Of a stretch of 64,000 nucleotides of DNA, positions 1 through 60,660 are shown piece after piece. Position numbers and translations under genes: made by a program. How positions within the stretch are numbered: position 1 is the first letter of the stretch; each line of letters begins with the position of its first letter. Origin of the DNA: a virus; IMG/VR virus record IMGVR_UViG_3300045988_126112, positions 128,001 through 192,000 of that record; one strand, written 5' to 3'. The notes below the pieces were generated by a model. That model saw nothing but the letters and a program-made list of their open reading frames with translations, was not told the origin of the DNA and did no database searches.

Positions 1-3000
1 CCAAGATTTTTAGCACCATTACCTATCCATTTACCAGTTTCACTAATTTTTCCACCTGCCCATTTAGCAGTATCTTTAGCTCTATCAAATAAACCTTTAT
101 GACCTTTTACTTCTTTATTATATTCTTCTAAACTAAAATTAGTTCCGTTCTTTTCATTGTATTCTTTTAATTCTTGTTGTGCTTGAGCTTGTTGTTGTTT
201 AATATTACCCATATCAACACCAATACCACTTAATACATTAATTAATATTGACATTATAGTTTTTGTAGGTAATAATGTAGCTATTATAGATAATCCTTGT
301 ATAGTTTTAACAACACCAGAAATTATTCTGTACCCAAATGGAACATTGTCTTCGGTAATTCCCATTATATTTCTTGCATCTTTAAAACCAGATATGAAAT
401 CATAAACAGCGAATCCTAAAGTTACTAATCCACCTGTTCCTATACCACCAACTACTCTAGCTAATGCAGTACCAGACATTTTTACAGCACCTTTAGATAT
501 TACTTCTAACATCTTAGGAACAGCTCTTTCTAATAAAGCTTTAGCAACTGGAATATTTTTAACTTTACCTAAAAGATTTACTACTGTTGAATTAGTAAAT
601 AATTTTGTAAATTGATTCTTAGCCCAGTTTAATAATTGACTTACTAAACCACTATTAGCAACATTAGTTAATATTTTGCCTTCCATTTTATTTGAAAGAC
701 CACCACGTTTAGCTATACGTTTAGCATCCATTTTTAAGAATTTATTTCCTAAAATTTTACCACCAGCATTAGTAACAGTTTTAGCTCCTTTTACAGCTCC
801 TTTTACAGAAGTCTTTACTGGATGTAATATAAAGTCTTTAGCTGTTTTAAATCCAGCTCTAGCTATATCTTTAGCTCCACCTTTAAATCCAGATTTTACA
901 GCTCCTTCAGTTATTTCTTCAACTCCTTCTTTAGATAAAGATTTAGTTAAAGTTTTAACTTCTCCTTCTTTAGCTATATTTTTAGCTACAGAAGTTTTAA
1001 CAGCACTAGCATATCTAGCACCTTTTCTAACTGTACTTCTTACAGCAGTATTACCTATAACAGCAGCTGCTGATGTAGTACCTTTTCCACCTTTATTTAC
1101 AGGATTACCATTTTCATCATAAGTAACTTCTTGGTCATCAGTTCCTATATCCCATCCCATACCTTTAAGTATTGATGGTATTAATTCTGAACCTATAAAT
1201 TTAACAGTTCCTTTTAATAATGATGGTATTTCTTGAACTAAAAGAACTAATCCATCTTTAAGTCTTGGTAATGCTTCTTCAGTTAACCATGGTTTTATAG
1301 TAGTATCCCAGTTTTCAGATATTGCTGGACCTATTTTAGTTTTAAATAAATCAATTATTTCTGGAAGATACATTAATCCACCTATAACTAAAGCACCTTT
1401 TCCTATAGTACCAAATATCCCTCTAGTGAATAATCCTCCTATAGCACCTCTACCTAATATACCACCTAATAATCCTTTAGCTCTTCCAAGTAAGCCTTTA
1501 CCTATACCTAAAGCCATAAGTAATTTACTTAACCAACCACCAGATTTCTTTTCTTCATCTTCTTCTTTTTCATTTTTCTTAAATAATCCAGAGAAACTAT
1601 CATAGAATGCTTCTTGTTTTTCTCTTAATCTTTGAGCTATTCTAATTGATTTTCTAGTTGATGAATCTGTTGAATCTGTTTCATATTGACCAGTTTTACT
1701 ATCACGTTTCATTACAACTTCATTACCTTCAGCATCTAATATAGATTTCTTCATGTCATCAGATAATCCGTCTTTAACTTCACTAGTATCTACTGATTTT
1801 TTAATTTTTTCAACTGCTGTTTCATCTTGTTGTTTCTTAGCTTCTTCTTCACCAGTTTTCTTTACTTCATCTTCTTTAGCCTTTTTAGCTTCAGCTTCTT
1901 CTCTATATTGTTTCATTATATCTTTATATGAAACTGTACGATATTTCTTAACATAAGTTTGTAAATCAGCTAAAGGCATTTTTCTAACAAAATCAGGTTG
2001 ATCATCTAAAGATTTAATACCAATTCTTCTTAATAGTATTTGACGTTTCTTTTGATCTAAAGATAATACTTGTTCATCTCTATGAACAGCATCATCTAAT
2101 TCTATTTTAGAATTAGCTCTTCTTTGTTGGAATTCATCTCCAGTTTTAAAATCTCTTATTTGTTCAAGTAACTTATTAGTTTCGTCTTGTTTATCAGTAA
2201 GAGATTTATTAAGATCTGTAATACCTTTGATTATTTCAGTTATCTTCTTATTTCTCTCATCATCTTTAATATCTTCTGGAGTTATAACTTTACCTTTAAG
2301 ATTTCTAAGTCTATCTTCAGATATCGCTAATTTACCAAAAGTTTCTAAAGATAATTCTTTTCCTAATTTTGTTGAATTTCTAGCTAATTCTTTTACTTTT
2401 CTTTCATAAGCATTTTTACCTTTTTCTTTATCAAGTCTTAAATCTTCAGTTATTTTAAATTCATTCATTAAGTCCATTATCTTATTAAAGTCAGCATTAT
2501 CATCTAATTTAATTCCTTGATCTTTAGCAAGTTTTCTTAAATAATTTATAGCCATTTCAGATTGACCATAATTTAATCCACCTAAGATTATATTTCTATC
2601 TTTAATCTTTAATTTACCATTTGCACCGATATTCATATTTTTAAGTAAAGCTGTTATTTCTTTTCCAGCTTTTATTTTATTCTTTTCATATTCTTTATCA
2701 GTAACACCAAAAGCTTTATATTGATTAACAAATTCTCCAAGTTGGTCATTTGTCATTGATGCTAATATTTTATCAGCTTCATCATTATTATAACCATTAT
2801 CTTTTACCTTCTTATTATATTTATCTCCATATATATTTTGAAGGTATTCTTCACGAGTTACTTTACTATTTGGATTAGCTTTCTTATAAGCTTCAAATTG
2901 TTCATCAACTTGATTTTTTACATTATCAGCAGCTTCTTTTCTTTCATAGTAAGTATCTCTTAATATCCTAGAACCATAATATTTTTTATAATTTGAAGTG

Positions 3001-6000
3001 TCTTTAAGCATATTTTGCATAACTTTCTTACTTTCTTCGTCTTTAACATCTCCAAATCTTTTCTTAATTAAATCTTGAGCTTGATCATGGAAACCAGTTC
3101 TCATTAAGAATCTTAATTTATTGGCATCTTTTTTACCAAATCTTTTTTCCATTTCTTCTGCAGCATTATTAAATGAATCTCTTTTAATCTTTTGAGATTG
3201 ATCATAGAAGAAATCCATTTCATTTTGATTATTCATATAATTAAGTCTTTCTTCTGCTGTCATATCATCAGCTGTACCAACTCTTATTTGATGTCTTTGA
3301 GTTGCACGTCCTATTCCACCTAGTATTCTAGCTGGAGTAGATATAATTCTACCAACTGTTCCTAATAAACGTTTACCTAAATTCTTAAATGGACTAAATA
3401 TAGTACTTAAGAATTTACCAACTTTTTCTTTTATTGGAACAACTAAAGTTTTATTGAAGAAATTAATTATACCTTTAGCTATACCACCAAATACTGTTTT
3501 AAACATTATACCAATTTGTTTTGTTATAGGTTTAAAAGCATCTTTTAATGGTTTTAATATATCACGTTTAGCCCAATTAATAAATGGACTAAATATTTTA
3601 TCTTTCATGAAACCTATTAATCCACCTTCTTGTTCTCCAGTTTGTGGATTATAAGTACCAAATATCATTTCTTTAAATTTATCTGTAGTTGATGCATATC
3701 CTAAAGCTGAACCTATTAAGATACTACCAAGTACACCAAATGGACCACTTAGATGTAACATGTTTAATCCAAATCCTACACCAGCACCTGCTAATATATT
3801 AGGAAGATTCTTCTTAAATTTATTCCATCTATCTTCTCCTATAATACCTGTTTCTCCGAATAATCTATTTTGTATAGTTGCATTATTTTTAGCTACACCT
3901 AATGCAGATCCTATTAATAATCCAGGAACTGGACCTAAAGGATTTAAAGCAGTAAAGCCAGAAAGTAAACCAACTATACCATATTTTTTCATATCTGGGA
4001 ATGTTTTAGCAACTGTATTGACAAAGTCTTTAGGTAATAATCCTCCTTTACGTCCGATATAATTACCATCTTTATCAAATTCTTTTTCACCAAATAACAT
4101 TGCTTGTACTTTTGCACTATTTTTAGTTAATGCTATACCAGAACCTACAGCTGCTCCTAATAATGGACCACCTATAAATCCTGTAAGTAATGATGCTCCA
4201 CCACCTAATAATGCTCCAGATACAACATCTGGTCCATATAGTTTAGCTTCACCCATTACTTCTTTCATTGCATTTGCTGATACTTTTTTATCTTTCTTAC
4301 CGTCTTTATCTCCAACAATAGCTTCCATAGTTTTATTAATAGCTCTTTTATAAACTTGGAATGTTTCAGAGAATATATTAGTATAATCTCCTGCTACACC
4401 TTTATCAGTTTGATTACCAGAATTATTAATAACTCCTTCATTACGTTGATTCAAGGCTTGTTGAGTTATTTTAGCTATTTTTACAAAGTGTTTTTGTTGG
4501 TCTTCATTATCTAAATTAGCAAAATCATTACCAACTTCTCCACTTCTTCCAAGCATAGATATTATAATATTAGGATCTACATTATCAGCTCCCATTACAG
4601 CAGCTATATTTTGATATAAATATTTAGCTTGGTCATGCACTTTATTATCTTTCCATTTACCTGATTGAACTTTAGCCATAGCTTCTCTTATTTGATTAGC
4701 TATTTGATTACGTTTATCACCTGTAAGTGAAGGAACAACAGTTTCACCTTTACCTACTATAGCTAATTGATCTTTATCTATTACTCCACCTTTAGCAAAT
4801 CCTGGTATACCAACTCTACCAAAATATCCTTTAACTGCATTTTGTATATCAGTAGTTAATCCATCCATAAAATCATTTAATACTGCTTGTTCATTTCCTG
4901 CTTCTATATTTCTTAAAGGATTTTGCATAAATGGTGTTATTCTAGGACCAGGTTTAAATTGGTTCTTATTACCATTTCCTTGTAAAAGATTTAATATTTG
5001 TTTCAAAGTACTATCTATACTTTCAGTAGTAGAAGTTTGAGTTTGCATAGATTCTTTTATAAATTTATTATCTGTAATAAATTTAGAACCACCTTCAGTA
5101 AGATTATCAGACCAAGGTCTATCTTTATCTAATTGATCTTCAGGTCTTTCTTTAGATTGATTATATTTCTTAATTCTATCAAAAGCATCTAAAGCTTCTA
5201 TATCTTCTACACCATTACCAGTATCTAAAGTTCCATCTTCTTTTAATCCTAATGCATCAGTAATAAATTCTGTAAGTTCATTAAATGTATCTTCAACATC
5301 TTCTATTTGTCTAGATAATTCTTTTATACGTTTATTAGCTGGAGCATTTTCAGACATTTTATAACCTGTACCTTTTTTATTATATATCTTTTGTTTAGCT
5401 CTTATAGCAACATCTTTCTTATCACTTATATCTTTTATAACACTATCTTTTTGACCTAATATATCTTTAATAGTTATACCTTCAAAATTATCAGCATAAT
5501 TTGAATCTCTATCTTTAAATAATTTATCTATAGATTTAGATACAAAATCATACATATCTCCATCTTCGCTGCCTAATATTCCTGCAAATGAATCAAGTAA
5601 TTTTTGTTTAGCAGTTTTATCATATTGTAAATCTAATCCAGCTATAGATCTTGGATCATTTTTATTAAGATTAGATTCACCAGTTTCAATCATCTTTTCT
5701 ATTTCAGCTATTTGTTTATTTAAATCTTCTGATTCTCCATTAAGAGAAACTTCACTTAATAAACCTTGATATCTATTATCTAATGTAGCTAAATATCTTA
5801 ATGCTGGTAAACTCATATCATTTGAACGAATTGATTGTTCAATTTGTTTAGTCAATTTATCTATTTTTTGTTTTTCTATCTTTTGTAATAATTCGGTATT
5901 GACTTTTCTCATACCATTCTTTTTACCATCTTTAGTAACTCCATTAAAGTTTCTAAATCTACCTATCTCAGTACCGTTTTGTTTTTCTAATTCTTTAAGT

Positions 6001-9000
6001 CTATCTTGAGATTTCTTTAATTGATCAACAACATTCTTATCTTTACCAGTTAACATTTCTTCAGCTAATCTACGTTGTTCTTCTATTGGAAGATTTTTAA
6101 ATTCAGAGCTTTGGAAATATTCATAAGCTTGTTCATTAAGAACATTTTGTCTTTGTCCTATATCATATTTATTAAAATTATTCTTATTAATAATATTCTC
6201 TCTAGCATTATCATAATCTAATAATTCTTGTTCGATATTTTGATTACTATCTCTCATTTCTTTTAATCTTTTCATTGCTTTATCTAATCTGTCATTAAGT
6301 TTAGCTATTGTATCTTTACATTTCTTTATTTCAGCTTTGACTTTTTTAGCTTTAATTTGTTGCTGTTTATTTCTACTTTTTCTTAAAGCTAAATATTGAG
6401 TATTGTAATCATTTAAATCTTTAGTAACTGATCTAATTTGTTGTCTTAAAGTCATTACTGACATATTAAGAGATCTATATTCTTTTATATCTTTTAAATT
6501 CTTAGTTTCTTCATCTAATTCTTTTAATTCAAGTTTAATATTATTTATATCAAACATATCATTTATATTATTAGATTCACCACTTTGAACTTTTCTAGCA
6601 TGCTCAATACTTCTCTTAGTTTTATCAAATTTTTGTTTTCCATTAAGATTATCATAATTATCAAAATCATAATTTCTTAATATCTTTGTAACTGTTGTAG
6701 TTATATCATCTTCATCAAATTCTTCTTGATTATTATCTTCTTTCTTTTTATCAAAAAAGTTTTTAGATTTGAATAAATTAGTTAATGGGCTAAATACATC
6801 TTTAACAGAATCAGTTATAGAAGTACCGATACCTTTAAGAGTATCACTCATTTTTTCTCTAACTTGTTTAAAGAAATCTTTAGCTCCTTGTTTCTTTTCT
6901 TCCAATCCAAACATTTCAGATATCTTACCATATATACCTTTTATAAGTCCTTTATCTTTATCTAATCCTAATCTATCTTTTAATGGATTAAGAATCTTTT
7001 CATCCATAAATTCATTGAAATGATTAAAAGATTTTTTCATTTCAAAAAGTAAATGATCTAATATGCCTTTAATAGATTTCTTACCATTTTCTCCTTCTTT
7101 ACCATATATTAATTCAAATAATCCTTGATCTACTTTTACAGCTAAATCAGTCATTATTGAAGAAGGACGTTTAATATATTTTTGAGCTTTTTCAGCAAAC
7201 TTATCAAATTTAGAACTAAATGATTTACCACTTAATCCCATTTCTTCTTTAAGTTTATCAAATTCAGTCTTTTCTTTTTCAGCTTCTTCTCTAAGTTTAT
7301 CTTTATTTTTATTAGTTTGAACGTTGCTTCTAACAGCTCCTCTAACAGTTTCATCATCTAAATCAGATATATTAACTAATAATTCTCCTTTTTCTAATCT
7401 TCTAGCTTGTTGTCTTAAAAATGTTTTATTAGCTCTATCTCTTTCAAGTGCTTTTTTAGTACTTTCACTCATCTTTTCATTTTCACTTCTTGTATCTTTT
7501 ATAGCTGTTTCAGATAGTGATCTAAAACCTCTATCATATCTTTGAGTATAAGTATTACCATCAGCATCAATTATATCGTAATTTTGTACTAAATCCAAAG
7601 GCATACCTTGGATATTTCCTCCACCACCAAATCCTTGAGCTGTTATACGTCTCATATAATTTAATTCTTTATACATACTTTGCATATAGAAGAATATATT
7701 CTTACCATAATTATCTTTAGTATCTAATAAAAGATTAGTATTAAAAGAAGTCTTTTCAGCTTTTTTATTTTTCTTACCATTTAATTCTTTAGCAAATTGA
7801 TTATGATTAGCATTATTAAATAAATATGCATATTGTCCACTTTTTTCTATATCTTTAAAACGTCTAGTTTGATTGCCATATTGATCTTGCATATCTGCAT
7901 TATATTGCATCATAATATTTCTTGGTAATTCTCTTAATATAGATTGTATAGCTAATAAATTCTTTTCACTAACACCATAATCTAAATATTTTTCATTAAA
8001 ATTATTCTTTTGATAATCAATTATTTCACCTTTGTTATATGAAGTTTCAAATAGTTTTTCTAAATCTTTAAAGAATTGATCATATTCTTCTTTACTACCA
8101 AAAGCTAAATTTTTATTAGCTATTTCTCTTACTTGTTGCATAGGTTCAGATGCAGCACTTTTCCAGAAAGAATTTTTCATATTATCAAATTCTTTTTTCA
8201 TTTCATCATAAGTAACAAATTTACCTGTTTCATAATTAAATGTAGTTTCTTGACTTCCTGTAAGAGCTGATAATATTTTGCTTAATTGTTGTGGTATAAC
8301 TTCAGTTAAAGCTTTTTGAGATTTACCATTCCAATCAACTTTACCTTTGTCATATTGAGAAACATCTACACTAGTTTTTGGTGAATTTTTTATACCAAAT
8401 ACTTTTCCAAGCATTTTTTCTAGCATACTATCTTCAGAATTAGACATAGTATTTAATTTTGTAACCATAGATGCAAAGAATCCACCTATAGTTTTATTCA
8501 TATTATTAAATGCTTTTTCTAAATCTTTAGGTGTCATTCTATTAATCATAGAAGATAATAAAGCACCATATGGGTTTGCAGCAAATAATGCAAGCATATT
8601 ACTATTTTCACCAGTACCTTGCATCATCATATTCCAAGCTCCACCTGTTAATTCATTAAGATAAGAATTTGAATTTTTCATTATTGTTTTACCATATGCA
8701 ACTAAATCAGGCATACCACCAGCATCAACAACATCATTATATCCAATTTTATTTTTCTTACCTTCTTCACTATTAGTAGTAGCTTCAATCTTTCTAGTAT
8801 TCTCAGCTATTTCTCTTAATAATGAAACTTGATCTTGTAAAGCTTTACTTGTATTTGTAAAGAACTCAGTTGAATTTGATAAATGAGGTGTCAAATTTTT
8901 ATCCAAGTATTGCATTACGCTACCAATATTACTATTCATAGCATCTAAATGACCATTCATAATACCAAAAGCTTTAGTATTTTGAGTATATAAAAGATTT

Positions 9001-9671
9001 GTATTTTTTATATTTACTTTAGATGAGTATTCAGCACTTCTAGCAACAGCCATAGATATAGCGTTAGCATTAGCTTGTGATGTATTTTCTATACTACTAA
9101 TAGTTGCTAATGTTTCTTGAGCAGTTCCACTAGTTTTACTACCACTAGATGATGAATCAGTAGCTTCATCATCCCAATTATCGTCAAAATCAGAAAAATC
9201 ATCGTCCCAATCATCTAGATTTAAATCTCCAAGATCAGCACTAAGATTATCATCAAATCCAGAGCCCATGTCATCACTAAGCCCCATTTGTTTCATTTCC
9301 ATTTTTTCAAGACGTTCTTTATTATAAAGATTACCTGTCATTATATCTTCTTTAAGTGCTCTTAATCCTACATCAGCAGCTTCATAGAATTTAGTTTTCA
9401 TGATAGCATCTAATCCACGTCTATAAGTAGTACGATAATCCATAGCAGATTTGTATATTGTTTTAAATAAATCATTATTAGTATCAGAGAAATCTGATAT
9501 AACTGGATTCATTTGTTTCATCTTTTCAACAGCAACATATGTTATAGATTTACCTACATTATAAAGATATCCTTGTCTTTTACCTAATTTTTGTTTATTA
9601 GTTTCAACTTTAGGTTTTCTACTAGCATTCTTCTTTAATTGCTTAACAGCACTAGGACTTTTATTTGCCAT
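1..9671 (-). CDS. tape measure protein, giant (N-terminus at 9671; C-terminus beyond the window; >=3223 codons here)
   Basis: ATG at 9671-9669 is preceded by GGAGG (9684-9680, 8-nt spacer). I translated this frame at three places and all agree: 9671 (MANKSPSAVKQLKK...), about 4830-4741 (GYFGRVGIPGFAKGGVIDKDQLAIVGKGET, typical of tape measure proteins) and positions 5-3 (..GKWIGNGAKNL). The track lists no complete minus ORF in 1-9671, as expected for an ORF open at the window edge. The + strand ORFs at 676-7545 are its low-complexity antisense shadows. The middle is K/E-rich coiled coil and the C-terminal third has Gly-rich hydrophobic segments. Confidence 0.8.
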   Translation of the reverse strand, partial: MANKSPSAVKQLKKNASRKPKVETNKQKLGKRQGYLYNVGKSITYVAVEKMKQMNPVISDFSDTNNDLFKTIYKSAMDYRTTYRRGLDAIMKTKFYEAADVGLRALKEDIMTGNLYNKERLEKMEMKQMGLSDDMGSGFDDNLSADLGDLNLDDWDDDFSDFDDNWDDEATDSSSSGSKTSGTAQETLATISSIENTSQANANAISMAVARSAEYSSKVNIKNTNLLYTQNTKAFGIMNGHLDAMNSNIGSVMQYLDKNLTPHLSNSTEFFTNTSKALQDQVSLLREIAENTRKIEATTNSEEGKKNKIGYNDVVDAGGMPDLVAYGKTIMKNSNSYLNELTGGAWNMMMQGTGENSNMLALFAANPYGALLSSMINRMTPKDLEKAFNNMNKTIGGFFASMVTKLNTMSNSEDSMLEKMLGKVFGIKNSPKTSVDVSQYDKGKVDWNGKSQKALTEVIPQQLSKILSALTGSQETTFNYETGKFVTYDEMKKEFDNMKNSFWKSAASEPMQQVREIANKNLAFGSKEEYDQFFKDLEKLFETSYNKGEIIDYQKNNFNEKYLDYGVSEKNLLAIQSILRELPRNIMMQYNADMQDQYGNQTRRFKDIEKSGQYAYLFNNANHNQFAKELNGKKNKKAEKTSFNTNLLLDTKDNYGKNIFFYMQSMYKELNYMRRITAQGFGGGGNIQGMPLDLVQNYDIIDADGNTYTQRYDRGFRSLSETAIKDTRSENEKMSESTKKALERDRANKTFLRQQARRLEKGELLVNISDLDDETVRGAVRSNVQTNKNKDKLREEAEKEKTEFDKLKEEMGLSGKSFSSKFDKFAEKAQKYIKRPSSIMTDLAVKVDQGLFELIYGKEGENGKKSIKGILDHLLFEMKKSFNHFNEFMDEKILNPLKDRLGLDKDKGLIKGIYGKISEMFGLEEKKQGAKDFFKQVREKMSDTLKGIGTSITDSVKDVFSPLTNLFKSKNFFDKKKEDNNQEEFDEDDITTTVTKILRNYDFDNYDNLNGKQKFDKTKRSIEHARKVQSGESNNINDMFDINNIKLELKELDEETKNLKDIKEYRSLNMSVMTLRQQIRSVTKDLNDYNTQYLALRKSRNKQQQIKAKKVKAEIKKCKDTIAKLNDRLDKAMKRLKEMRDSNQNIEQELLDYDNARENIINKNNFNKYDIGQRQNVLNEQAYEYFQSSEFKNLPIEEQRRLAEEMLTGKDKNVVDQLKKSQDRLKELEKQNGTEIGRFRNFNGVTKDGKKNGMRKVNTELLQKIEKQKIDKLTKQIEQSIRSNDMSLPALRYLATLDNRYQGLLSEVSLNGESEDLNKQIAEIEKMIETGESNLNKNDPRSIAGLDLQYDKTAKQKLLDSFAGILGSEDGDMYDFVSKSIDKLFKDRDSNYADNFEGITIKDILGQKDSVIKDISDKKDVAIRAKQKIYNKKGTGYKMSENAPANKRIKELSRQIEDVEDTFNELTEFITDALGLKEDGTLDTGNGVEDIEALDAFDRIKKYNQSKERPEDQLDKDRPWSDNLTEGGSKFITDNKFIKESMQTQTSTTESIDSTLKQILNLLQGNGNKNQFKPGPRITPFMQNPLRNIEAGNEQAVLNDFMDGLTTDIQNAVKGYFGRVGIPGFAKGGVIDKDQLAIVGKGETVVPSLTGDKRNQIANQIREAMAKVQSGKWKDNKVHDQAKYLYQNIAAVMGADNVDPNIIISMLGRSGEVGNDFANLDNEDQQKHFVKIAKITQQALNQRNEGVINNSGNQTDKGVAGDYTNIFSETFQVYKRAINKTMEAIVGDKDGKKDKKVSANAMKEVMGEAKLYGPDVVSGALLGGGASLLTGFIGGPLLGAAVGSGIALTKNSAKVQAMLFGEKEFDKDGNYIGRKGGLLPKDFVNTVAKTFPDMKKYGIVGLLSGFTALNPLGPVPGLLIGSALGVAKNNATIQNRLFGETGIIGEDRWNKFKKNLPNILAGAGVGFGLNMLHLSGPFGVLGSILIGSALGYASTTDKFKEMIFGTYNPQTGEQEGGLIGFMKDKIFSPFINWAKRDILKPLKDAFKPITKQIGIMFKTVFGGIAKGIINFFNKTLVVPIKEKVGKFLSTIFSPFKNLGKRLLGTVGRIISTPARILGGIGRATQRHQIRVGTADDMTAEERLNYMNNQNEMDFFYDQSQKIKRDSFNNAAEEMEKRFGKKDANKLRFLMRTGFHDQAQDLIKKRFGDVKDEESKKVMQNMLKDTSNYKKYYGSRILRDTYYERKEAADNVKNQVDEQFEAYKKANPNSKVTREEYLQNIYGDKYNKKVKDNGYNNDEADKILASMTNDQLGEFVNQYKAFGVTDKEYEKNKIKAGKEITALLKNMNIGANGKLKIKDRNIILGGLNYGQSEMAINYLRKLAKDQGIKLDDNADFNKIMDLMNEFKITEDLRLDKEKGKNAYERKVKELARNSTKLGKELSLETFGKLAISEDRLRNLKGKVITPEDIKDDERNKKITEIIKGITDLNKSLTDKQDETNKLLEQIRDFKTGDEFQQRRANSKIELDDAVHRDEQVLSLDQKKRQILLRRIGIKSLDDQPDFVRKMPLADLQTYVKKYRTVSYKDIMKQYREEAEAKKAKEDEVKKTGEEEAKKQQDETAVEKIKKSVDTSEVKDGLSDDMKKSILDAEGNEVVMKRDSKTGQYETDSTDSSTRKSIRIAQRLREKQEAFYDSFSGLFKKNEKEEDEEKKSGGWLSKLLMALGIGKGLLGRAKGLLGGILGRGAIGGLFTRGIFGTIGKGALVIGGLMYLPEIIDLFKTKIGPAISENWDTTIKPWLTEEALPRLKDGLVLLVQEIPSLLKGTVKFIGSELIPSILKGMGWDIGTDDQEVTYDENGNPVNKGGKGTTSAAAVIGNTAVRSTVRKGARYASAVKTSVAKNIAKEGEVKTLTKSLSKEGVEEITEGAVKSGFKGGAKDIARAGFKTAKDFILHPVKTSVKGAVKGAKTVTNAGGKILGNKFLKMDAKRIAKRGGLSNKMEGKILTNVANSGLVSQLLNWAKNQFTKLFTNSTVVNLLGKVKNIPVAKALLERAVPKMLEVISKGAVKMSGTALARVVGGIGTGGLVTLGFAVYDFISGFKDARNIMGITEDNVPFGYRIISGVVKTIQGLSIIATLLPTKTIMSILINVLSGIGVDMGNIKQQQAQAQQELKEYNEKNGTNFSLEEYNKEVKGHKGLFDRAKDTAKWAGGKISETGKWIGNGAKNL

Positions 9672-9729
9672 TTTGATTACCTCCTTTTACAAAAAATAAA
9701 TATTATCTTAATGTTAAAAAACAAATTTG

Positions 9730-9912: not shown

Positions 9913-9946
9913 TAAATATACTAGCCTACTTTTATGTTAGTTTAAT

Positions 9947-10659: not shown

Positions 10660-10917
10660 TTACATGTTTTTCTTTACACTTTTCTTTTTATCTATATTAT
10701 GTGTAATTGAACAATAATGCCAATTTTCACATCTATACATTCGACCTCCATTACTATCTACATCATATAGTATCCATTCTTTCCCACAATAAGGACATAT
10801 ACCTTTATTCCATTGTTTTTTCTCTTTTCTTATATCAGATATCATTGAACCTATAAGACATACAATTACAAATACTATTAACCATTGCATATACCTATAC
10901 CCCCTGTCTCTTATCAA
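10660..10917 (-). CDS. membrane-anchored zinc-ribbon-like protein
   Basis: 85 aa. An N-terminal TM helix (WLIVFVIVCLIGSMI) is followed by WNKGICPYCG...CENWHYC. It is a paralog of 10895-11161. AGGGGG RBS. Confidence 0.8.
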   Translation of the reverse strand: MIRDRGYRYMQWLIVFVIVCLIGSMISDIRKEKKQWNKGICPYCGKEWILYDVDSNGGRMYRCENWHYCSITHNIDKKKSVKKNM

Positions 10918-11161
10918 AGTTATAAGTCATTTCACACATATGTCCTTCTTTACATAAGTATATTCTTTTTTCTGTTAAATTATAATCTTCTTCAGATGTA
11001 TGATATATCCATGCATTTCCACATTTTCTACATATACCTTTATTCCATTCTCTTTTTTCTTTTAGTATAGTATATAGTATACCACCTACTATAAAAGATA
11101 CTAAACCTCCACAAAATATTAAAGCTACAATATCTACTATTTGATCTGTATTCATATACAT
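10895..11161 (-). CDS. membrane-anchored zinc-ribbon-like protein (tandem paralog)
   Basis: 88 aa. A TM helix (VALIFCGGLVSFIVGGILYTI) is followed by WNKGICRKCG...CKEGHMC. It overlaps the next gene by 23 nt. The start could instead be the ATG at 11155. Confidence 0.8.
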   Translation of the reverse strand: MYMNTDQIVDIVALIFCGGLVSFIVGGILYTILKEKREWNKGICRKCGNAWIYHTSEEDYNLTEKRIYLCKEGHMCEMTYNFDKRQGV

Positions 11162-11168
11162 ATACCTC

Positions 11169-11399
11169 CTATTTTCTTCTTTCTTCTAGATTGATTATTT
11201 TACATTCTTCTTTTATTCCCTTTCTTTTACTATCATATTTATTACATATACTAGCATGTATAATAGGATACTCTATAAGTTTCCTATTTATACTACACAT
11301 ACATGTTGCATTAAATATGTACGTATTAGAATGTTTACACTTCCTACAATCCTTTAAGTATTGATTACCTTTACACTTCTTAACTATTTTCTTTATCAT
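11169..11399 (-). CDS. small Cys/Lys-rich protein
   Basis: 76 aa with 7 Cys (KKCKG, DCRKCKH, TCMC, ...). GGAGG lies 9 nt upstream of ATG 11399. Confidence 0.75.
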   Translation of the reverse strand: MIKKIVKKCKGNQYLKDCRKCKHSNTYIFNATCMCSINRKLIEYPIIHASICNKYDSKRKGIKEECKIINLEERRK

Positions 11400-11449
11400 A
11401 AGCTATGTCCTCCTTTATTTATATAAAAGTACTTATTTTATTACATTAA

Positions 11450-11458
11450 TATAATATA
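11450..11458 (-). promoter_or_regulatory. phage promoter-like motif TATATTATA (minus strand)
   Basis: The plus strand reads TATAATATA, which is TATATTATA on the minus strand. It lies 50 nt upstream of ATG 11399, at the head of the leftward unit. Confidence 0.4.
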
Positions 11459-11510
11459 TAAAAGAAAATAATATTAAAAAATATTTTTTTACAATGTAAC
11501 TAACATTTCG

Positions 11511-11817
11511 ATAAGAAGGAGGACATAGGGGTGGGCGGTCGGGAAAGATTGTGAATGGGATAAATGATAGAGAAGAGTGAAGGATAAGAGTGAAGACAAG
11601 GGAACAGGAAGAAAAGACCCGACCCGAGAGGGGAGGGAGATAAGCAGTAACAAGATAGATACGATAGAAAAGAGAGATAGATAAGAGAGAAAGGGAATAG
11701 AACGTGAAAATGAAAGAAAAGAGAGATACAAGGAGTGAAAGGGAGTAATGGATCCTGGGAACTAGAGAACTTAGGAACAGGGAACTTGAAGTTAAGGAAT
11801 GGGTAGAGAAGAACAGG
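11511..11817. other. 307-bp polypurine (GA-rich) non-coding tract
   Basis: My hand count on the + strand is roughly A 136, G 109, T 38, C 24, which is about 80% purine and about 43% G+C. There are 17 GGA triplets. No credible ORF is present; only a low-complexity S/L/F antisense ORF at 11489-11731. Confidence 0.85.
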
Positions 11818-11873
11818 CTTTTATCAAATAGAAAAAATAAACATTAATATAAGTAAAAAAGGAGGTAAAGGAA

Positions 11874-12149
11874 ATGTTAGTAAACAATATAAAAGATATA
11901 GAATATAAAAAAGTATATGGAATAGTCGATGATAAAGGAATAAAAAGACTATATATACTAGCAGAAGAGAATGAATGTAATATGAAATTCTCAAGAGTAT
12001 TAGTAATACAAAATAATAATAAAAATAGATTAGCAATGGAAGATAGTAGACATAGACATGGATTAAAAATCTATACTAAAAAGAAATTAAAACAAATGGT
12101 TGAAAGTGGACAAATAGAAGAATTAGTAGAATTAAAAGTTCATGAATAA
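11874..12149 (+). CDS. hypothetical protein
   Basis: 91 aa. AAGGAGG RBS upstream of ATG 11874. Confidence 0.8.
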   Translation: MLVNNIKDIEYKKVYGIVDDKGIKRLYILAEENECNMKFSRVLVIQNNNKNRLAMEDSRHRHGLKIYTKKKLKQMVESGQIEELVELKVHE

Positions 12150-12211: not shown

Positions 12212-15200
12212 ATGATATTATTAGATGAAGTACAAAAAATGAAATTAATAAAGAAACCATTTTATTTACCTTTAAATAAAGATAAGAAACATGGTAAAGC
12301 AGTATTATTAATGACTCCAATGTATGATAGTACTATAAGATTATTAAATAATCCATTAATAATAAAGAAACATTATGAATCATATTATTTAGAAAGAGAT
12401 ATGATGTATGTAATTAATCATGAAGGACATATAGATTATGATGCTACAGATGGATTGATTAATGAATATAATGATATTCTAGATGATATTAATGAAGCTA
12501 CATTAGCTAATCCTTATATAGGAAACTATAGTAATAATCTTAAAGAAAAGAATAAAGTAAGAAAAAGAAAGATGAGAAAATCTATTCATAAAATGAATAG
12601 AATAGGAAATTATGAAAAAAATAATGTAGGAATAGAAGGAGATAAAAAAGCTATAGGTAAAGAAGTAGTTAAAGATGATCCAGATAAGATATCAGATGAT
12701 AAATCAGTAGAAGAAATTTATGTTGGATATTCTGGAGATATGTATGTAGAAGATAATAATTCTCTTATAAGATATAATATAGGAGATAATAAGAATCTAT
12801 TATATATATTAGAAGCAGATCAAATATATAATAATCAATTAAAGAAATTATTATATAATGATAGAATGAAACAAAAAGGAGAATTGTTTGATATCTATAA
12901 TATGATTAAACAAGATGTAGATTATATCAAATATTGCTATATAGATATTAATAAATATAAAGCAAGAAATATGTTTATTGATACATTCTATTATAATGAA
13001 ATATTCTTAAATAAGAATGTATGGAAAAGAGATAAAGCTATTAATTTATACTTTGATTTAATGGATAGATTCTTAGATAATCCTAAAATAGAAAAAGATT
13101 ATGGTAGAATAGAAACAGTATTAGTACCAGTATTAGAATGGGTAAGAGAAGATGATGATTTAGATTTTACAAAGAGTATAAATTTCGTATCTATGGTATT
13201 AAGATTATTAAAGAATAAAGCTCATAATTCTTTACTTAATAAATGGAGAGGAATAAACTTTGTATTTATGACTAGTAAAGGATATTTTACTTGTGATTTA
13301 GGTTCTTTAGAAGGAAAAAGAGATAAAGCTAAATTTAGAGTATTACTTAGTAAATTAATTAATGGTGATAGTATTCAAGATGAAGGTAAAGAAGATTCAC
13401 CAGGAGCTATTAAACAAGCTATTACAGATAAAATAGAAGATGATGCTAAGATAAAACTTTATAATGCAACTGGAGATGCTGATAAAAAAGAAGCTAGTAA
13501 GAAAGAATTAGAAGAAAAGATAGATAAAGCTGCTGAATTATCATCTTCAGTAGATGGAGCATTAGATAAATTAGATGATGATGAAAGAGTTAAACAAATC
13601 TTAATGGATTTAGCTGCAGAAGAAGAAAATAAAGTTAAACTTAATGCTGCTAGAACTTCAAGAATGTTAAAAGCACAAGACAAATCAATGGAAAAAGTTA
13701 TTAATGGTAGATCAATAAGAGATATATTATCAGCTCAAAAAGAAGAAGTTGAAATACCTGAAACATCAATAAATATAGATTCAGTAAATGATGAATGGAA
13801 ACATATGACATTTATGAATTTTGAAGATGCTTATAATATAGATGAAGACATAATGGCTATTATATATTCATTCTCAGAAAAATCAGATCCAATAGCTATA
13901 TTAGATGTTGATGTACAAGACACTTCAACTTCTGAAGATAAAAAAGAAACTTATACAGTTAAAATGGAAGATGCTCAAGGTAAAAGATTTACTATTAAAT
14001 TTGATATACCTAAATTTATAGATAATAAATTCATGTTACTTAGAGGTAATGAAAAGACTATGAATGGGCAATTAACTTTAATACCAATATGTAAAACAGA
14101 TGAAGATACAGTACAAATTGTTTCAAACTATAAGAAAATATTTGTTCATCCATATGGTTCATCAGTAGGAAAATCAATGCCATCAGCAGATGTATTATAT
14201 AAATACTTAAATAAATATGATGGCAAAGATATAAAAATAGTTCCAGGTGATAATACTAAAACATGTCATAAATATGATTTACCAATAGACTATATAGATT
14301 TAGCTAAAGTATATAATACTATAGAAACTGATAAATATATCATATATTTTAATCAAGATGCTATAAGAGAAAAATATAAAGTTGATGATAAAGAAGAAGG
14401 TATTCCATTAGCAGTAGAAAAAGCTACAGGTAAAGTAAGATATTATCGTGGAGCTGCTGATACAACATGTACAAGTGCTATAATAAGTTTATTATGCCAA
14501 TCTAAAAATGGTGATAAACATAGAGAAGGAATTAATAATCAAAAGATTGCTAATAAGTATATGTATAGTAAAGCTAATATACTTAATGTAAAAATACCAT
14601 TAATAGTTATAATGGCTCATTCAGAAGGATTAGAAGAATCAATGAAAAAAGGTAATATTAATTATAGTATACAAGAAAAGAGATATAAACCAAATATGTA
14701 TGAAGATGTAATTAAATTTAAAGATGCATATATTGTTTATAGAGTAGATTATAATTCATCTTTATTAATGAATGGTCTTAAAGAATGTCCAACTGAAGAA
14801 TATTCAATTAAAGAAATGAATAATAAATCAATGTATATAGATTTCTTAGAATTATATGGTGGTAGAATATTATCAGATGGTCTAGACAACTTCTATGACT
14901 TAATGATAGATCCAATAACTAAAGAAGTTCTTGAATATTATAAACTTCCAACTGATTATTGTGAATTATTAGCTTATGCTAACTTCTTATTAGCTGATAA
15001 TAAATATGTAAAACATACAGATATGCGTTCAAGAAGATATAGAACTAATGAATTAGTTGCTGGTTATGCTTATCAAGCTCTTTCAGAATCTTACGGAGCA
15101 TACAAAACTGAACTTAAAAAACGTGGTACAGCTACAATGACAATAAAACAAACTGCTATTATAGATAAAGTAATGCTTGACCCAACTTGTGCAGATTTAT

Positions 15201-16729
15201 CATCATTAAATGATTTACAAAATGCTGAAGCTATAAATTCTGCAACATATAAAGGATTAGCTGGAATGAACTATGATAGATCTTATGATTTGGATAAACG
15301 TTCTTATGACCCATCAATGCTAAATCTTATAGGAATGGCTACAGGATTTGCTGGTAATGTTGGTTTAACAAGACAAACTACTATGGATATGAATATAGAA
15401 GGTAAAAGAGGATATGTTAAAACTATAGATGGTGATACTAGTCAATTATCAGTAACCAAATCATTCTGTCCTACTGAAGGATTAACTCCATTTGGGGCTA
15501 CAAGAGATGACCCATTTAGATCTGCGATGAACTTTATTCAAACTAGTAAACATGGTATGAGAATAAAGAATGCTATGCCATTATTAATGAGTAATGGTAC
15601 TGATATGGCATTACCATATTTAACTTCAAATACATTCTCTTTCAATGCTAAAGCTAATGGCAAAGTTATTGAAATTACTAATGATTATATGATAGTAGAA
15701 TATAAACTTACTAAAGAAGAAAAAGAAAGAGGATTACCAGAAAAAGATTTTATAGATTTAAGAAATACAATCAAGAAAAACTCTAATGGTGGATTCTATC
15801 AAGCAATAAAATTAGATACAGATTTAAAAGTAGGAAATACTTTTAAGAAGAATGAAGTAATAGCATATGATAAATTATCATATTCATCTAAAGTAGGTAA
15901 TACAGGAGATTTATCATATAATTTAGGTGCATTATGTAAAGTTGCTATGCTTACAACAGATGAAGGATTTGAAGATAGTGCCATAATATCTGAATGGTTA
16001 TCAGATGCATTAGCATCTAGAGTTGTTGTTAAAAAAGAATATGTATTACCAAAGAATACTAATATATATTACATGGCTAAAAAAGGTCAAGAGATTCAAG
16101 AAGGAGAACCTTTAATGATTTTCCAAAATGCATTTGAAGATGATGATGTAAATTTATTATTAAAGAATCTTAGTGATGATGAAGAACTTATATCAGATTT
16201 AGGTCGTGTTCCAATTCGTTCTAAAGTTACAGGAAGAATAGAAGATATAAAAGTATATCGTACTGTAGAAAAAGATGAATTATCAGAATCTTTAAGAAAA
16301 GAAGTTAATAAAATAGAAAAACCTATAAATGATATTAAGAAAGCTATGAATAATACAGATACTTATGATGCTAGTAAACTTGAACCAACATATGTACTTG
16401 AAAAAAGTGGTAAATTAAAAAATGTTGATGAAGGTGTATTAGTTGAATTCTATTTATCTTATTATGATAAGATGTCTGTTGGAGATAAACTTATATATTA
16501 TTCAGCATGTAAAGGTGTTGTAAAAGATATATTCCCAGCAGGAAAAGAACCTTATTCATTATTTAGACCTGATGAAAAGATTCATACATTAGTTCCTTAT
16601 TTTGGTGTAGCAAATCGTATAGTTTGCTCAATAGTGAATACTATACCTATGAATAAAGTATTAATAGAATTAGATAGAGCAGTTAAAGATTTATGTGATA
16701 TTCCATATAAATATTTAGATGAAGAGTAA
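12212..16729 (+). CDS. multisubunit RNA polymerase beta-like subunit (long N-terminal extension; lacks the canonical beta C-terminal region)
   Basis: 1505 aa. [26 protein letters not shown] aligns with bacterial beta [34 protein letters not shown] aligns with [32 protein letters not shown] aligns with [26 protein letters not shown] aligns with [32 protein letters not shown] aligns with RDVH..HYGR.CPIETPEG.NIGL. Confidence 0.85.
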   Translation: [1505 protein letters not shown]

Positions 16730-27336: not shown

Positions 27337-27369
27337 GTATTGAATAAAAATATTAGGGGGTTTGATATT

Positions 27370-60005: not shown

Positions 60006-60045
60006 TTTTCTTTTACCTCCTTTACTATAGATTTATTAATATGTT

Positions 60046-60081
60046 AAAAAATATAGGGATAGGAGAAACCCCCTATCCCTA
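60046..60081 (-). terminator. intrinsic terminator (minus strand)
   Basis: Stem TAGGGATAGG/CCTATCCCTA. The A-run on the plus strand is a T-run on the minus strand. Confidence 0.75.
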
Positions 60082-60087
60082 ACCCTT

Positions 60088-60660
60088 CTATACTGGAGGT
60101 CTACTAATCAATGATGGACCACAGTTTTTATATATTTTATAAGTTATATCAGATTCTGTTGTATATTTATCTGTATTTAAATTATAAAAACTTATTTTCA
60201 TACCAATATCATCATCATAGTTAACTAAACTAAAATCAGTAAGTATTCCATTTAGAAAAATTTCTAAATAATCTAATTGTGGATCGTAATTAAGAAACTC
60301 TGTTAATACATCAGGAATATCCATTCCATAATCATTTGTTACTTTTGATAATACTATTTTATCTGTAAAAGTTCTTATAGTTGGTTTAGAAAAAGTTAAC
60401 TGATTCCAATTAGTTCCATCATATCTCCATATATAATTAGTAGCTTTAACTAAATATAATTTATTAGATAATGGTTTAGCTAAAGAAGTTCTAGCTTTAT
60501 CATCATCTACTATTATTAAATCAGCTATTGATTGTCTACCATTTTTAATGGTATCAAAATATAATTCGCCAGTATCTGAACAAGAAATCATTTGTCCAGC
60601 AGTTACTTTTATCTTCCCAATATTAGCTTTTGTAGTTTCTATTGGTTTAAATAATCCCAT
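60088..60660 (-). CDS. hypothetical tail/baseplate-module protein
   Basis: The track start is GTG 60693. ATG 60660 sits 8 nt after AGGGAGG. Confidence 0.8.
   Translation of the reverse strand: MGLFKPIETTKANIGKIKVTAGQMISCSDTGELYFDTIKNGRQSIADLIIVDDDKARTSLAKPLSNKLYLVKATNYIWRYDGTNWNQLTFSKPTIRTFTDKIVLSKVTNDYGMDIPDVLTEFLNYDPQLDYLEIFLNGILTDFSLVNYDDDIGMKISFYNLNTDKYTTESDITYKIYKNCGPSLISRPPV

Follow-up and report, generated by a model that had tools for sequence, protein, structure and literature searches.

A purine-rich non-coding tract behind a late-type promoter in an uncultivated gut jumbo phage is a candidate R-loop-forming element

We analysed a 64,000-nt stretch of viral DNA (IMG/VR record IMGVR_UViG_3300045988_126112, positions 128,001 to 192,000; hereafter, the window) and focused on a purine-rich tract at 11511-11817 on its + strand, which lies between leftward genes and a rightward operon for a phage RNA polymerase (RNAP) beta-like subunit. 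The tract begins at a conserved promoter (P1) of the late class known from phage AR9. Our reading, offered tentatively as one possibility, is that a clade-specific non-coding unit, with the tract as its transcribed body, lies upstream of the ancestral operon promoter (P2), that this body is prone to R-loop formation and that it may prime replication.

The window was drawn from a 244-kb contig of a human-gut metagenome, which is deposited in ENA as ERZ918339 k127_120508 (L001 in our set). Relatives were retrieved through a protein database and contig look-ups. Seven of these (L002-L008), whose RNAP beta-like proteins are 56-98% identical, make up the "eight loci" together with the window; among them, L006 is an independent Logan assembly of another strain of the same phage (98% RNAP amino acid identity). 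More remote comparisons used L009 (48% RNAP identity) and a distant set of 80 relatives (L010-L089; 38-53% RNAP identity, 1.6 Mb of DNA), with 42 distinct relatives for promoter counts. Peptide patterns from the RNAP or from the 91-aa protein encoded in front of it retrieved no close relatives from IMG/VR.

Exact counts over the tract (A136, G109, T39, C23) gave 79.8% purine, 43.0% G+C and 7.5% C, compared with 53.6% purine and 26.4% G+C for the whole window. An earlier reading of the letters alone (hereafter, the original prediction) had put these values at ~80% and ~43% by a hand count that was one off for T and for C; it also gave the rest of the window as ~70% A+T, where the figure for the whole window is ~74%. 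Over 300-nt sliding windows, no other part of the window reaches the values of the tract for either purine (0.80 vs. a mean of 0.537, standard deviation 0.088) or G+C (0.437 vs. a mean of 0.264, standard deviation 0.033), and the 200-nt purine maximum in the distant loci was ≤0.76. The flank at 11440-11500 is strongly A+T-rich (5-10% G+C). The tract is purine-rich and not a true polypurine sequence, and the earlier label was corrected because the longest unbroken purine run is only 15 nt. All three stop codons are found in each frame of the tract, and indels of 1 nt and 7 nt between the window and L006 break all frames, including the antisense S/L/F open reading frame (ORF); as first proposed, the tract is almost certainly non-coding. 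It is not an assembly artefact, because it recurs both in L001, where it is identical, and in the independent assembly L006, where it is ~93% identical.

In AR9, the late promoters read by the non-virion RNA polymerase (nvRNAP) have the experimentally defined consensus A(-11)ACA-(6N)-T-A/G(+1), and the early promoters read by the virion polymerase have the consensus AAATATATATTAT-(6N)-G(+1) (PMC7598289, PMC5312081). AR9-type late promoters need deoxyuridine in the template strand at -11/-10. P1 (TTTTTTTACA-N7-TAACA-N6-TA, 11484-11513, + strand) has its predicted start at A11513, two bases into the tract. Its core in the window, AACA(11502-11505)-TTTCGA-T-A(11513), matches the full late consensus with the same spacing in all eight loci, and differs from AR9 late promoters in that a further T-run/ACA block, also conserved, is present from about -30 to -18. 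In the alignment of the relatives, the T-run, TAACA and TA columns are invariant and the flanking spacer diverges. The composite motif (T-run-A[CT]-N5-9-TAACA-N6-T[AG]) occurs exactly once per locus in the window and L001-L008, always in the orthologous divergent gap, and gave 4 hits in the 1.6 Mb of distant loci. A sigma-70-type promoter was considered for P1 and rejected, as an acceptable -10 element is absent. On the evidence of this promoter, the tract is likely transcribed rightward from P1.

The operon that follows on the + strand of the ORF list comprises a 91-aa gene (11874-12149) and a gene for a 1505-aa RNAP beta-like protein (12212-16729). By tblastn, the latter is 31-32% identical to the multisubunit RNAP beta proteins of PBS1, Listeria LPJP1 and Staphylococcus jumbo phages, and PF00562 is present in its homologues; by this similarity, it is assigned as the beta-like subunit of a phage multisubunit RNAP. 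P2 (AACATTAATATA, 11840-11851, + strand) is also of the AACA-N6-TA form and has its predicted start at 11851, 23 nt upstream of the first rightward gene. In 30 of the 42 distinct distant relatives, a copy of the motif AACA-N6-T[AG] lies ≤90 nt ahead of the homologous RNAP gene, compared with 4.6% of background windows, with the predicted start typically 23-28 nt before the ATG. These matches identify P2 as the predicted ancestral promoter of the RNAP beta-like operon. As a broader observation, the AR9 late-promoter code seems conserved across a large, mostly gut-derived jumbo phage family (L010-L089). The RNAP beta-like subunit itself is probably a late (virion-polymerase) gene. Given that P2 serves the operon and that the wider relatives have it without the tract, P1 and the tract represent a clade-specific added unit, presumably with a role of its own.

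The early class is represented immediately to the left of P1, where a promoter of the form ATATATTAT-N6-G (11444-11459, - strand; motif 11450-11459, predicted start 11444) fits the AR9 early consensus and would serve a block of small minus-strand genes. The tract thus sits between divergent units, with the leftward motif and the first rightward gene (11874) where the original prediction had placed them. The window holds 11 perfect sites of this form, 11 of 11 co-oriented with and just upstream of genes, and the early core decamer ATATATTATA occurs 14 times vs. 6.1 expected. With both early and late consensus sequences matched exactly, the AR9 early and late promoter codes, as judged by motif, extend to uncultivated gut phages. 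A purine-rich non-coding unit is not mentioned for AR9 (PMC7598289, PMC5312081).

The predicted RNA begins with AAGAAGGAGGACAUAGGGGUGGGCGGUCGGGAA, and its strain-invariant 5' segment (11513-11610, + strand) carries a perfect AAGGAGG at 11516-11522 (+4 to +10), which resembles a Shine-Dalgarno (SD) sequence, and a G-cluster, GGGGTGGGCGGTCGGG, at 11528-11543 (+16 to +31). With its three runs of at least three G (G3+), the G-cluster has no equivalent elsewhere on the + strand of the 64-kb window, and it is also the sole site with G4Hunter ≥1.5 in the window besides a terminator hairpin at 60.07 kb. This second site (60064-60093, - strand), a G-rich hairpin (GGGATAGGGGG...CTCCTATCCC) with a T-run behind it, is in the simplest reading a terminator that immediately precedes an AACA-N6-TA promoter at 60034-60045.

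The conservation of the unit is uneven along its length. Between the window and L006, 1 change was found in the 113 nt of 11400-11512, which includes both divergent promoters, and 1 in the 211 nt of 11400-11610; the first 98 transcribed nt (11513-11610) have 0 changes. The remainder (11611-11817) is 85% identical with 10 gap positions (the 1- and 7-nt indels included), and 13 of the 22 tract substitutions exchange A for G or G for A, with the purine fraction unchanged at 0.79. For comparison, the RNAP gene (12212-16729) is 97.7% identical between the two strains and the neighbouring genes 90-95%. At greater distance, L002 and L007 (82% RNAP amino acid identity) have in common the promoter and about the first 27 transcribed nt, with an identical 25-nt block (GTTGGACATAGGAAGGGTGGGTGGG), and the remainder of their tracts is barely alignable. 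The G-cluster is recognisable as GGGTGGGTGGG in L002 and L007 and as GGGGTGGGTGGTCGGG in L003. A three-run G3+ cluster is located at the same place in the window, L006, L003, L002, L007 and L005, and is absent from L008 and L004; in L003, L002 and L007 the locus holds no other, the tract of L006 contains a second one, and the only one of L005 lies at ~+34. The G4Hunter maximum in +1 to +80 is 1.16-1.68 across all eight loci, and some G-cluster is kept in every one of them, L004 included, as three clustered G3+ runs in six.

The tract varies from 357 to 671 nt among lineages. Its composition is kept in seven of the eight loci, with a purine fraction of 0.63-0.79, a G-skew of +0.28 to +0.65, and a G+C content of 0.31-0.43 vs. 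a background of 0.24-0.26 (1.2-1.8-fold). Each lineage has its own direct repeats, including 17-29-nt repeats in the window, a 21-nt repeat present twice at 100% identity in L002, a 15-nt repeat present five times in L005, and a 51-nt repeat present twice in L008. On balance, the tract is probably constrained by its composition rather than by sequence or fold. The unit is present at the orthologous site in L002-L008, reduced in L004, and neither the tract nor P1 is found in L009 or at this site in the distant set.

The tendency of the tract to form an RNA:DNA hybrid was scored as the nearest-neighbour RNA:DNA hybrid energy minus the DNA duplex energy over 300 nt, using the Sugimoto parameters. 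Purine-rich RNA on pyrimidine-rich DNA is the most stable hybrid class. The minimum of the window is -63.6 kcal/mol (z = -4.5; window mean +18.7, standard deviation 18.3), the runner-up in the window scores about -21 to -23, and the lowest value reached anywhere in the 1.6 Mb of distant loci is -47. In seven of the eight loci, the locus-wide minimum begins -15 to +22 nt from the predicted P1 start, namely at 11517 for a start at 11513 in the window, 2298 for 2297 (L006), 5335 for 5330 (L003), 3423 for 3419 (L002), 2247 for 2244 (L008), 69 for 84 (L007) and 5628 for 5606 (L005). The per-nucleotide score, a nearest-neighbour prediction only, is negative in seven of the eight loci. The G-cluster at 11528-11543 also qualifies as an R-loop initiating zone (RIZ) of QmRLFS, that is, at least three G3+ runs or two runs of at least four G, 1-10 nt apart, on the non-template strand. 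In the model that pairs the RIZ with an R-loop elongating zone (REZ), non-template G-clusters initiate the hybrid and G density alone then suffices (PMC6125637); a conserved 5' G-cluster followed by a body kept only in composition matches this rule. R-loop formation by the tract is a serious possibility that falls short of probable.

In the mechanism that we propose, late-class P1 would be read by the non-virion multisubunit RNAP of the phage and would fire rightward at ~11513. The RNA would start with the conserved G-cluster and continue for ~300 nt as a G/A-rich, C/U-poor sequence kept for its composition. No intrinsic terminator was found on the + strand between P1 and P2 in the window, L002, L003, L005 and L008, and therefore the 3' end is undefined and read-through into the operon is the default; the transcript would run on into P2 and the operon. 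The element would act in cis through its composition, with the nascent RNA staying annealed to the pyrimidine-rich template as an R-loop, and this R-loop, situated where the two transcription directions part, would melt the duplex and might prime or activate replication of the phage DNA. We favour the R-loop because it covers the strand-specific anomaly locked to the start site, the 5' G-cluster, the conservation of composition only, and the extra unit at a divergence point. Service of such an R-loop as a replication origin is a candidate role that we hold to be rather unlikely, and with the same reserve P1 and the tract may be put forward as a candidate transcription-activated R-loop origin or replication-restart site that would use the phage's own multisubunit RNAP, a parallel to herpesvirus oriLyt or mitochondrial LSP-CSBII. 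A replication origin had been among the functions first suggested for the tract, together with an insulator and a packaging-related site; this part of the suggestion is plausible and is preferred here in its R-loop form.

Among known systems, the unit is most like a promoter-coupled R-loop-forming sequence or a transcription-activated origin, as far as sequence comparison can tell, and it does not belong to any described RNA family. The origins oriF and oriG of phage T4 consist of a phage-specific promoter and, downstream, a region in which a persistent R-loop forms whatever its exact sequence, and oriE, oriF and oriG all sit at transcriptional divergence points, where compositional bias shifts (PMC3016281). 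The likeness to oriF and oriG extends to a promoter specific to the phage programme that reads into a non-coding stretch, to properties that count over sequence and to the strand-switch position (PMC3016281), and oriE is a positional analogue of the tract. T4 differs in having a ~50-bp A+T-rich unwinding element and in using host RNAP with MotA, whereas the stretch in the window is G/purine-rich over ~300 nt and would be read by an AR9-type phage RNAP. The RIZ/REZ sequences of immunoglobulin switch regions and QmRLFS resemble the unit in having non-template G3+ clusters after the start, then a G-dense, C-poor stretch, in an orientation fixed by the promoter; unlike these, the unit has a G density of 0.36-0.37 after the cluster, under the 0.40 cut-off of the model, in a 26% G+C genome, and adenine dominates over guanine in the body. 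Other G-cluster-initiated R-loops are the hybrids of ColE1 RNA II, mitochondrial CSBII (LSP-CSBII) and herpesvirus oriLyt.

Several results weigh against the R-loop origin. The REZ of QmRLFS, a mammalian-tuned definition, calls for a G content of at least 40% over at least 100 nt, starting no more than 50 nt from the RIZ, and the best 100-nt G fraction is lower, at 0.37 in the window and 0.36-0.37 in L006, L003, L002 and L007. The R-loop-prone score largely restates composition. A T4-type A+T-rich unwinding element is missing downstream of the promoter, where the DNA is the richest in G+C of the window (43%); the very A+T-rich stretch (11440-11500) lies upstream of the P1 start. P1 is late-class, whereas origin firing is expected in early or mid infection. 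The bare late motif AACA-N6-TR shows no excess in the window (68 vs. 92 expected) or in its intergenic sequences, which make up 8.9% of the bases and hold 10 of the 105 hits; the motif is too short to show genome-wide enrichment. The cumulative GC skew has its minimum at 10-12 kb of the window, but it goes with the coding strand for all genes, even for two that are embedded oppositely, and hence is unusable as origin evidence. L004 is an exception in which the promoter and only ~50 G-rich nt are followed by A+T-rich DNA, and it looks like a natural minimal version of the element. The distant relatives have a short gap with P2 only and no compositional peak. The absence in distant relatives and the reduction in L004 mean that the element, if an origin, would not be universal and could not be the sole one. 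Finally, the lack of a terminator before the operon leaves room for a plain leader.

Such a leader would be a cis-acting 5' extension of the late transcripts of the RNAP operon, in which the SD-like string and the G-cluster (a possible RNA quadruplex) protect the 5' end from 5'-end-dependent decay, and the G/A-rich body keeps the RNA unfolded and a poor substrate for Rho and AU-preferring endonucleases. We regard this as possible, if somewhat unlikely. The terminator-free path from P1 to the operon agrees with it, as do the position of the perfect AAGGAGG, the purine/SD-like strings near the 5' end of each relative, the concentration of conservation within the first 30-100 nt, the low C content of the tract, and the weak folding signal that an open leader would show. 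STAB-SD of cryIIIA is a 5' mRNA stabiliser of Firmicutes, and the tract shares with it an AAGGAGG right at the 5' end of a long leader, well away from the ribosome-binding site of the gene. However, P2, of the same class and ancestral, is already 23 nt from the gene, and it is hard to see what a second promoter with a 340-nt leader would add. The SD-like string varies among the relatives and is not a proper SD in L002, L007 and L005, SD-like motifs are not enriched over composition, and the ~300 nt of raised G is left unexplained, a purine-rich body of this length having no counterpart in STAB-SD leaders. It is less likely still, and in our view improbable, that the tract has no dedicated function and is a fast-evolving low-complexity spacer, grown by slippage and duplication of purine-rich seeds past an extra promoter copy. 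A hypervariable body with indels and short tandem or dispersed repeats would fit such a spacer, as would the absence of the tract from the wider family and its near loss in L004. But the promoter and first 98 nt are better conserved than the flanking coding genes, the G+C content is raised in seven of eight lineages against the A+T drift of a 26% G+C genome, and the G-cluster is retained in all eight loci.

The original prediction had also pointed to a purine-rich RNA that would titrate a CsrA-type protein or 30S subunits; the rightward transcription that it assumed agrees with P1, and the titration found no support in the sequence statistics. As a trans-acting sponge, the RNA would bind CsrA (GGA), Hfq (A-R-N or AG repeats) or 30S subunits (SD-like motifs), which we consider quite unlikely. 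The motifs are numerous simply through composition: the 17 GGA triplets counted earlier are indeed present, against 19.4 +/- 2.4 in dinucleotide shuffles, GGAGG occurs 2 times vs. 2.5 expected, AGGA and ARN-triplet runs are at or under shuffle expectation, and AGAGAGA occurs three times. The GGA and SD-like counts match the shuffles, so that these motifs follow from composition and carry no signal of their own. Each relative has its own short internal repeats and the RNA is predicted to be largely single-stranded, as a sponge might be, and CsrB/RsmZ are likewise non-coding RNAs with many GGA triplets. In contrast to CsrB/RsmZ, the predicted tract folds contain few hairpins and no hairpin-presented GGA arrays, there is no conserved repeat unit, and Rfam gave no match at 11300-12000 even at E ≤ 10. 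The body is unalignable between phages with 82% identical RNAP, which disfavours a conserved protein-binding motif, and a defined 3' end is not detectable. The reverse possibility of a leftward CU-rich RNA with anti-SD-like motifs finds no support among the promoters: the only leftward one, with its start at 11444, is situated upstream of the tract and directed away from it, and the antisense strand has a fold z-score of ~0 in the window.

Two further explanations act at the level of DNA. A protein-binding array independent of transcription, such as initiator iterons or a pac or partition-type site, is again quite unlikely. It would account for the lineage-specific direct repeats found in every relative, the enrichment of GATA[AG] and GGGAAC, the 5-10% G+C flank, and the contigs of three relatives that break at or next to the region, and T4 oriE carries iterons whose role is not known (PMC3016281). 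Yet the repeats are few, imperfect and irregularly spaced, the contig breaks are equally expected from strain heterogeneity and low complexity, no candidate binding protein was identified, and neither the onset of the anomaly at the promoter start site nor its strand asymmetry is explained. The triplex (H-DNA) insulator of the original prediction, a polypurine-polypyrimidine structure suggested by a strand with 80% purine overall, is very improbable: purine runs are ≤15 nt, purine/pyrimidine runs of up to 23 nt occur elsewhere in the window, and the best mirror repeat in the tract has 9-nt arms and a 6-nt spacer.

Searches at the RNA level were in line with an element outside the described families. 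No Rfam family was found at gathering thresholds in the whole window, ARAGORN found no tRNA or tmRNA, and blastn of 11400-11900 against deposited phages gave no match; the original prediction likewise knew of no phage element of this kind. The + strand of seven tracts was folded, with z-scores of -3.3 in the window, -1.5, -1.0, -2.6, -1.8 and -1.3 in others, and -5.8 in L003, the sole outlier, via local GC hairpins. No conserved RNA structure was found, the z-scores being weak and the tract bodies too diverged for a covariation test. No antisense target of the tract RNA was identified within the window, where the best match was 13 nt (E = 0.24). The pattern GGACATAGG-N0-3-GGTGGG retrieved 176 loci from IMG/VR and JGI metagenomes, all chance matches in higher-G+C contigs and none with the promoter. 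A leader peptide was also tried and rejected: a mini-ORF (GTG GGC GGT ...) follows the SD-like string in the window, L002, L003, L004 and L007, but its length and sequence vary and it is missing in L005 and L008, and the conservation is taken as nucleotide-level.

Smaller features are found within and around the tract. The hypervariable purine-rich body (11611-11765, + strand) contains short direct repeats, for example 11566-11594 / 11663-11691, and GATAGAAAAGAGAGATA occurs three times. The 3' end (11757-11830, + strand), with GGGAAC(T) repeats, is near-identical in L006; L005 also has GGGAACAGGGA(A)CT close to the 3' end of its tract, and L002 has GAACTTAGG. GATA[AG] occurs 8 times in the tract vs. 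3.1 expected, and GGGAAC 3 times vs. 0.2. The motif RAAC-T(W)AG, chosen post hoc, recurs in every tract, with 17 copies vs. ~7 summed from shuffles, and is significant alone only in L002. GTCGGG (11538) and CCCGAC (11618), noticed in the original prediction, extend to a 7-bp complement, GGTCGGG at 11537-11543 and CCCGACC at 11618-11624 (+ strand), between the G-cluster and the only C-rich patch of the tract. The antisense-strand fold pairs the two as a 7-bp stem, the minimum free energy folds of the + strand pair them otherwise, and L003 carries a shorter equivalent (GGTCG/CGACC); with an estimated ~0.15 such perfect stems expected by chance, the complement is weak evidence of marginal significance. 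A perfect 13-nt inverted repeat (CTATGTCCTCCTT at 11403-11415 and AAGGAGGACATAG at 11516-11528) brackets the ~100-bp divergent promoter block. It was found in the window and L006 only, both divergent RNAs would carry the SD-containing AAGGAGGACAUAG, and it may be a trace of gene conversion or the ends of an invertible segment.

Other observations concern the tracts and assemblies of the relatives. AGCG strings (GAGCGA, AAGCGG) are packed in the tracts of L003 (5330-5720), L007 (84-400), L002 (3419-3840) and L005 (5606-5935), with 6-19 per kb vs. 0.1-0.3 per kb in the rest of each locus; the window tract has none, and the L005 tract has one GCGAAGC. These strings may resemble AddAB Chi sites (AGCGG) or stable mini-hairpins. 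In L004, a 212-aa gene (4896-5534) is inserted between the leftward genes and P1. The independent assemblies L007, L090 and L091 break (position 1) at or beside the tract region, L090 and L091 ~40 nt upstream of the RNAP ATG; two of the three breaks are at practically the same base. Such breaks would fit a tract that is of low complexity or hypervariable within the sample, G-rich DNA that sequences poorly, or a physical end of the genome.

The 11 early sites (27327-55281 on the + strand and 11444-11459 on the - strand) lie 15-93 nt before a gene start or overlap one. At 27342 and 45377, the predicted start is on or beside the annotated start codon; the mRNAs there may be leaderless, or the starts mis-called. 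Two adjacent small early genes (10660-10917 and 10895-11161, - strand; 85 and 88 aa) are paralogous, each with an N-terminal hydrophobic segment and a CxxC...C...HxC zinc-ribbon-like motif, and no Pfam hit for either. Further left, a giant minus-strand ORF spans 1-9686 and continues past the window end (>3228 codons in the window; 5708 aa on the full contig), and its homologues have peptidase C39/M23, NlpC/P60, lysozyme and GDSL-lipase domains. Upstream of it lies CTAACATAAAAGTA (9927-9940, - strand), the sole CTAACA-N6-TA site in the window besides P1. Stop-codon recoding of this left-hand block was considered and rejected, the giant gene being an ordinary ORF that runs off the window end and for that reason is missing from the ORF list. 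The 56 tabulated ORFs of the window end in 35 TAA, 21 TAG and 0 TGA stops, with a chance of ~0.003 for the latter if TGA usage were a typical 10%; this may reflect a host where TGA is an unreliable stop. Some RNAP beta-like proteins of the distant relatives (P0011-P0023) are 1700-2200 aa long, and their precomputed Pfam annotations include NUDIX (PF00293), metallophosphatase (PF00149), HAD (PF00702/PF13419) and GNAT (PF00583/PF13508) domains, which suggests enzyme domains fused to a phage RNAP subunit.

The phage studied here is uncultivated and common in human-gut metagenomes, ERR912112 and ERR4330083 being among the samples in which it is present. Even if the origin idea fails, the sequence statistics do not support the CsrA/30S and H-DNA ideas, and the presence of the AR9 promoter codes, as judged by motif, in gut phages and the probable composition-level selection on a non-coding unit in a 26% G+C genome stand. 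From a limited check of the literature, we know of no replication origin that has been mapped in jumbo phages with their own multisubunit RNAPs. The promoter, G-cluster and purine-rich tract at a divergence point provide a compact, sequence-defined origin candidate, and, if true, this would be, to our knowledge, the first predicted origin for the AR9/PBS1-like jumbo phage lineage.

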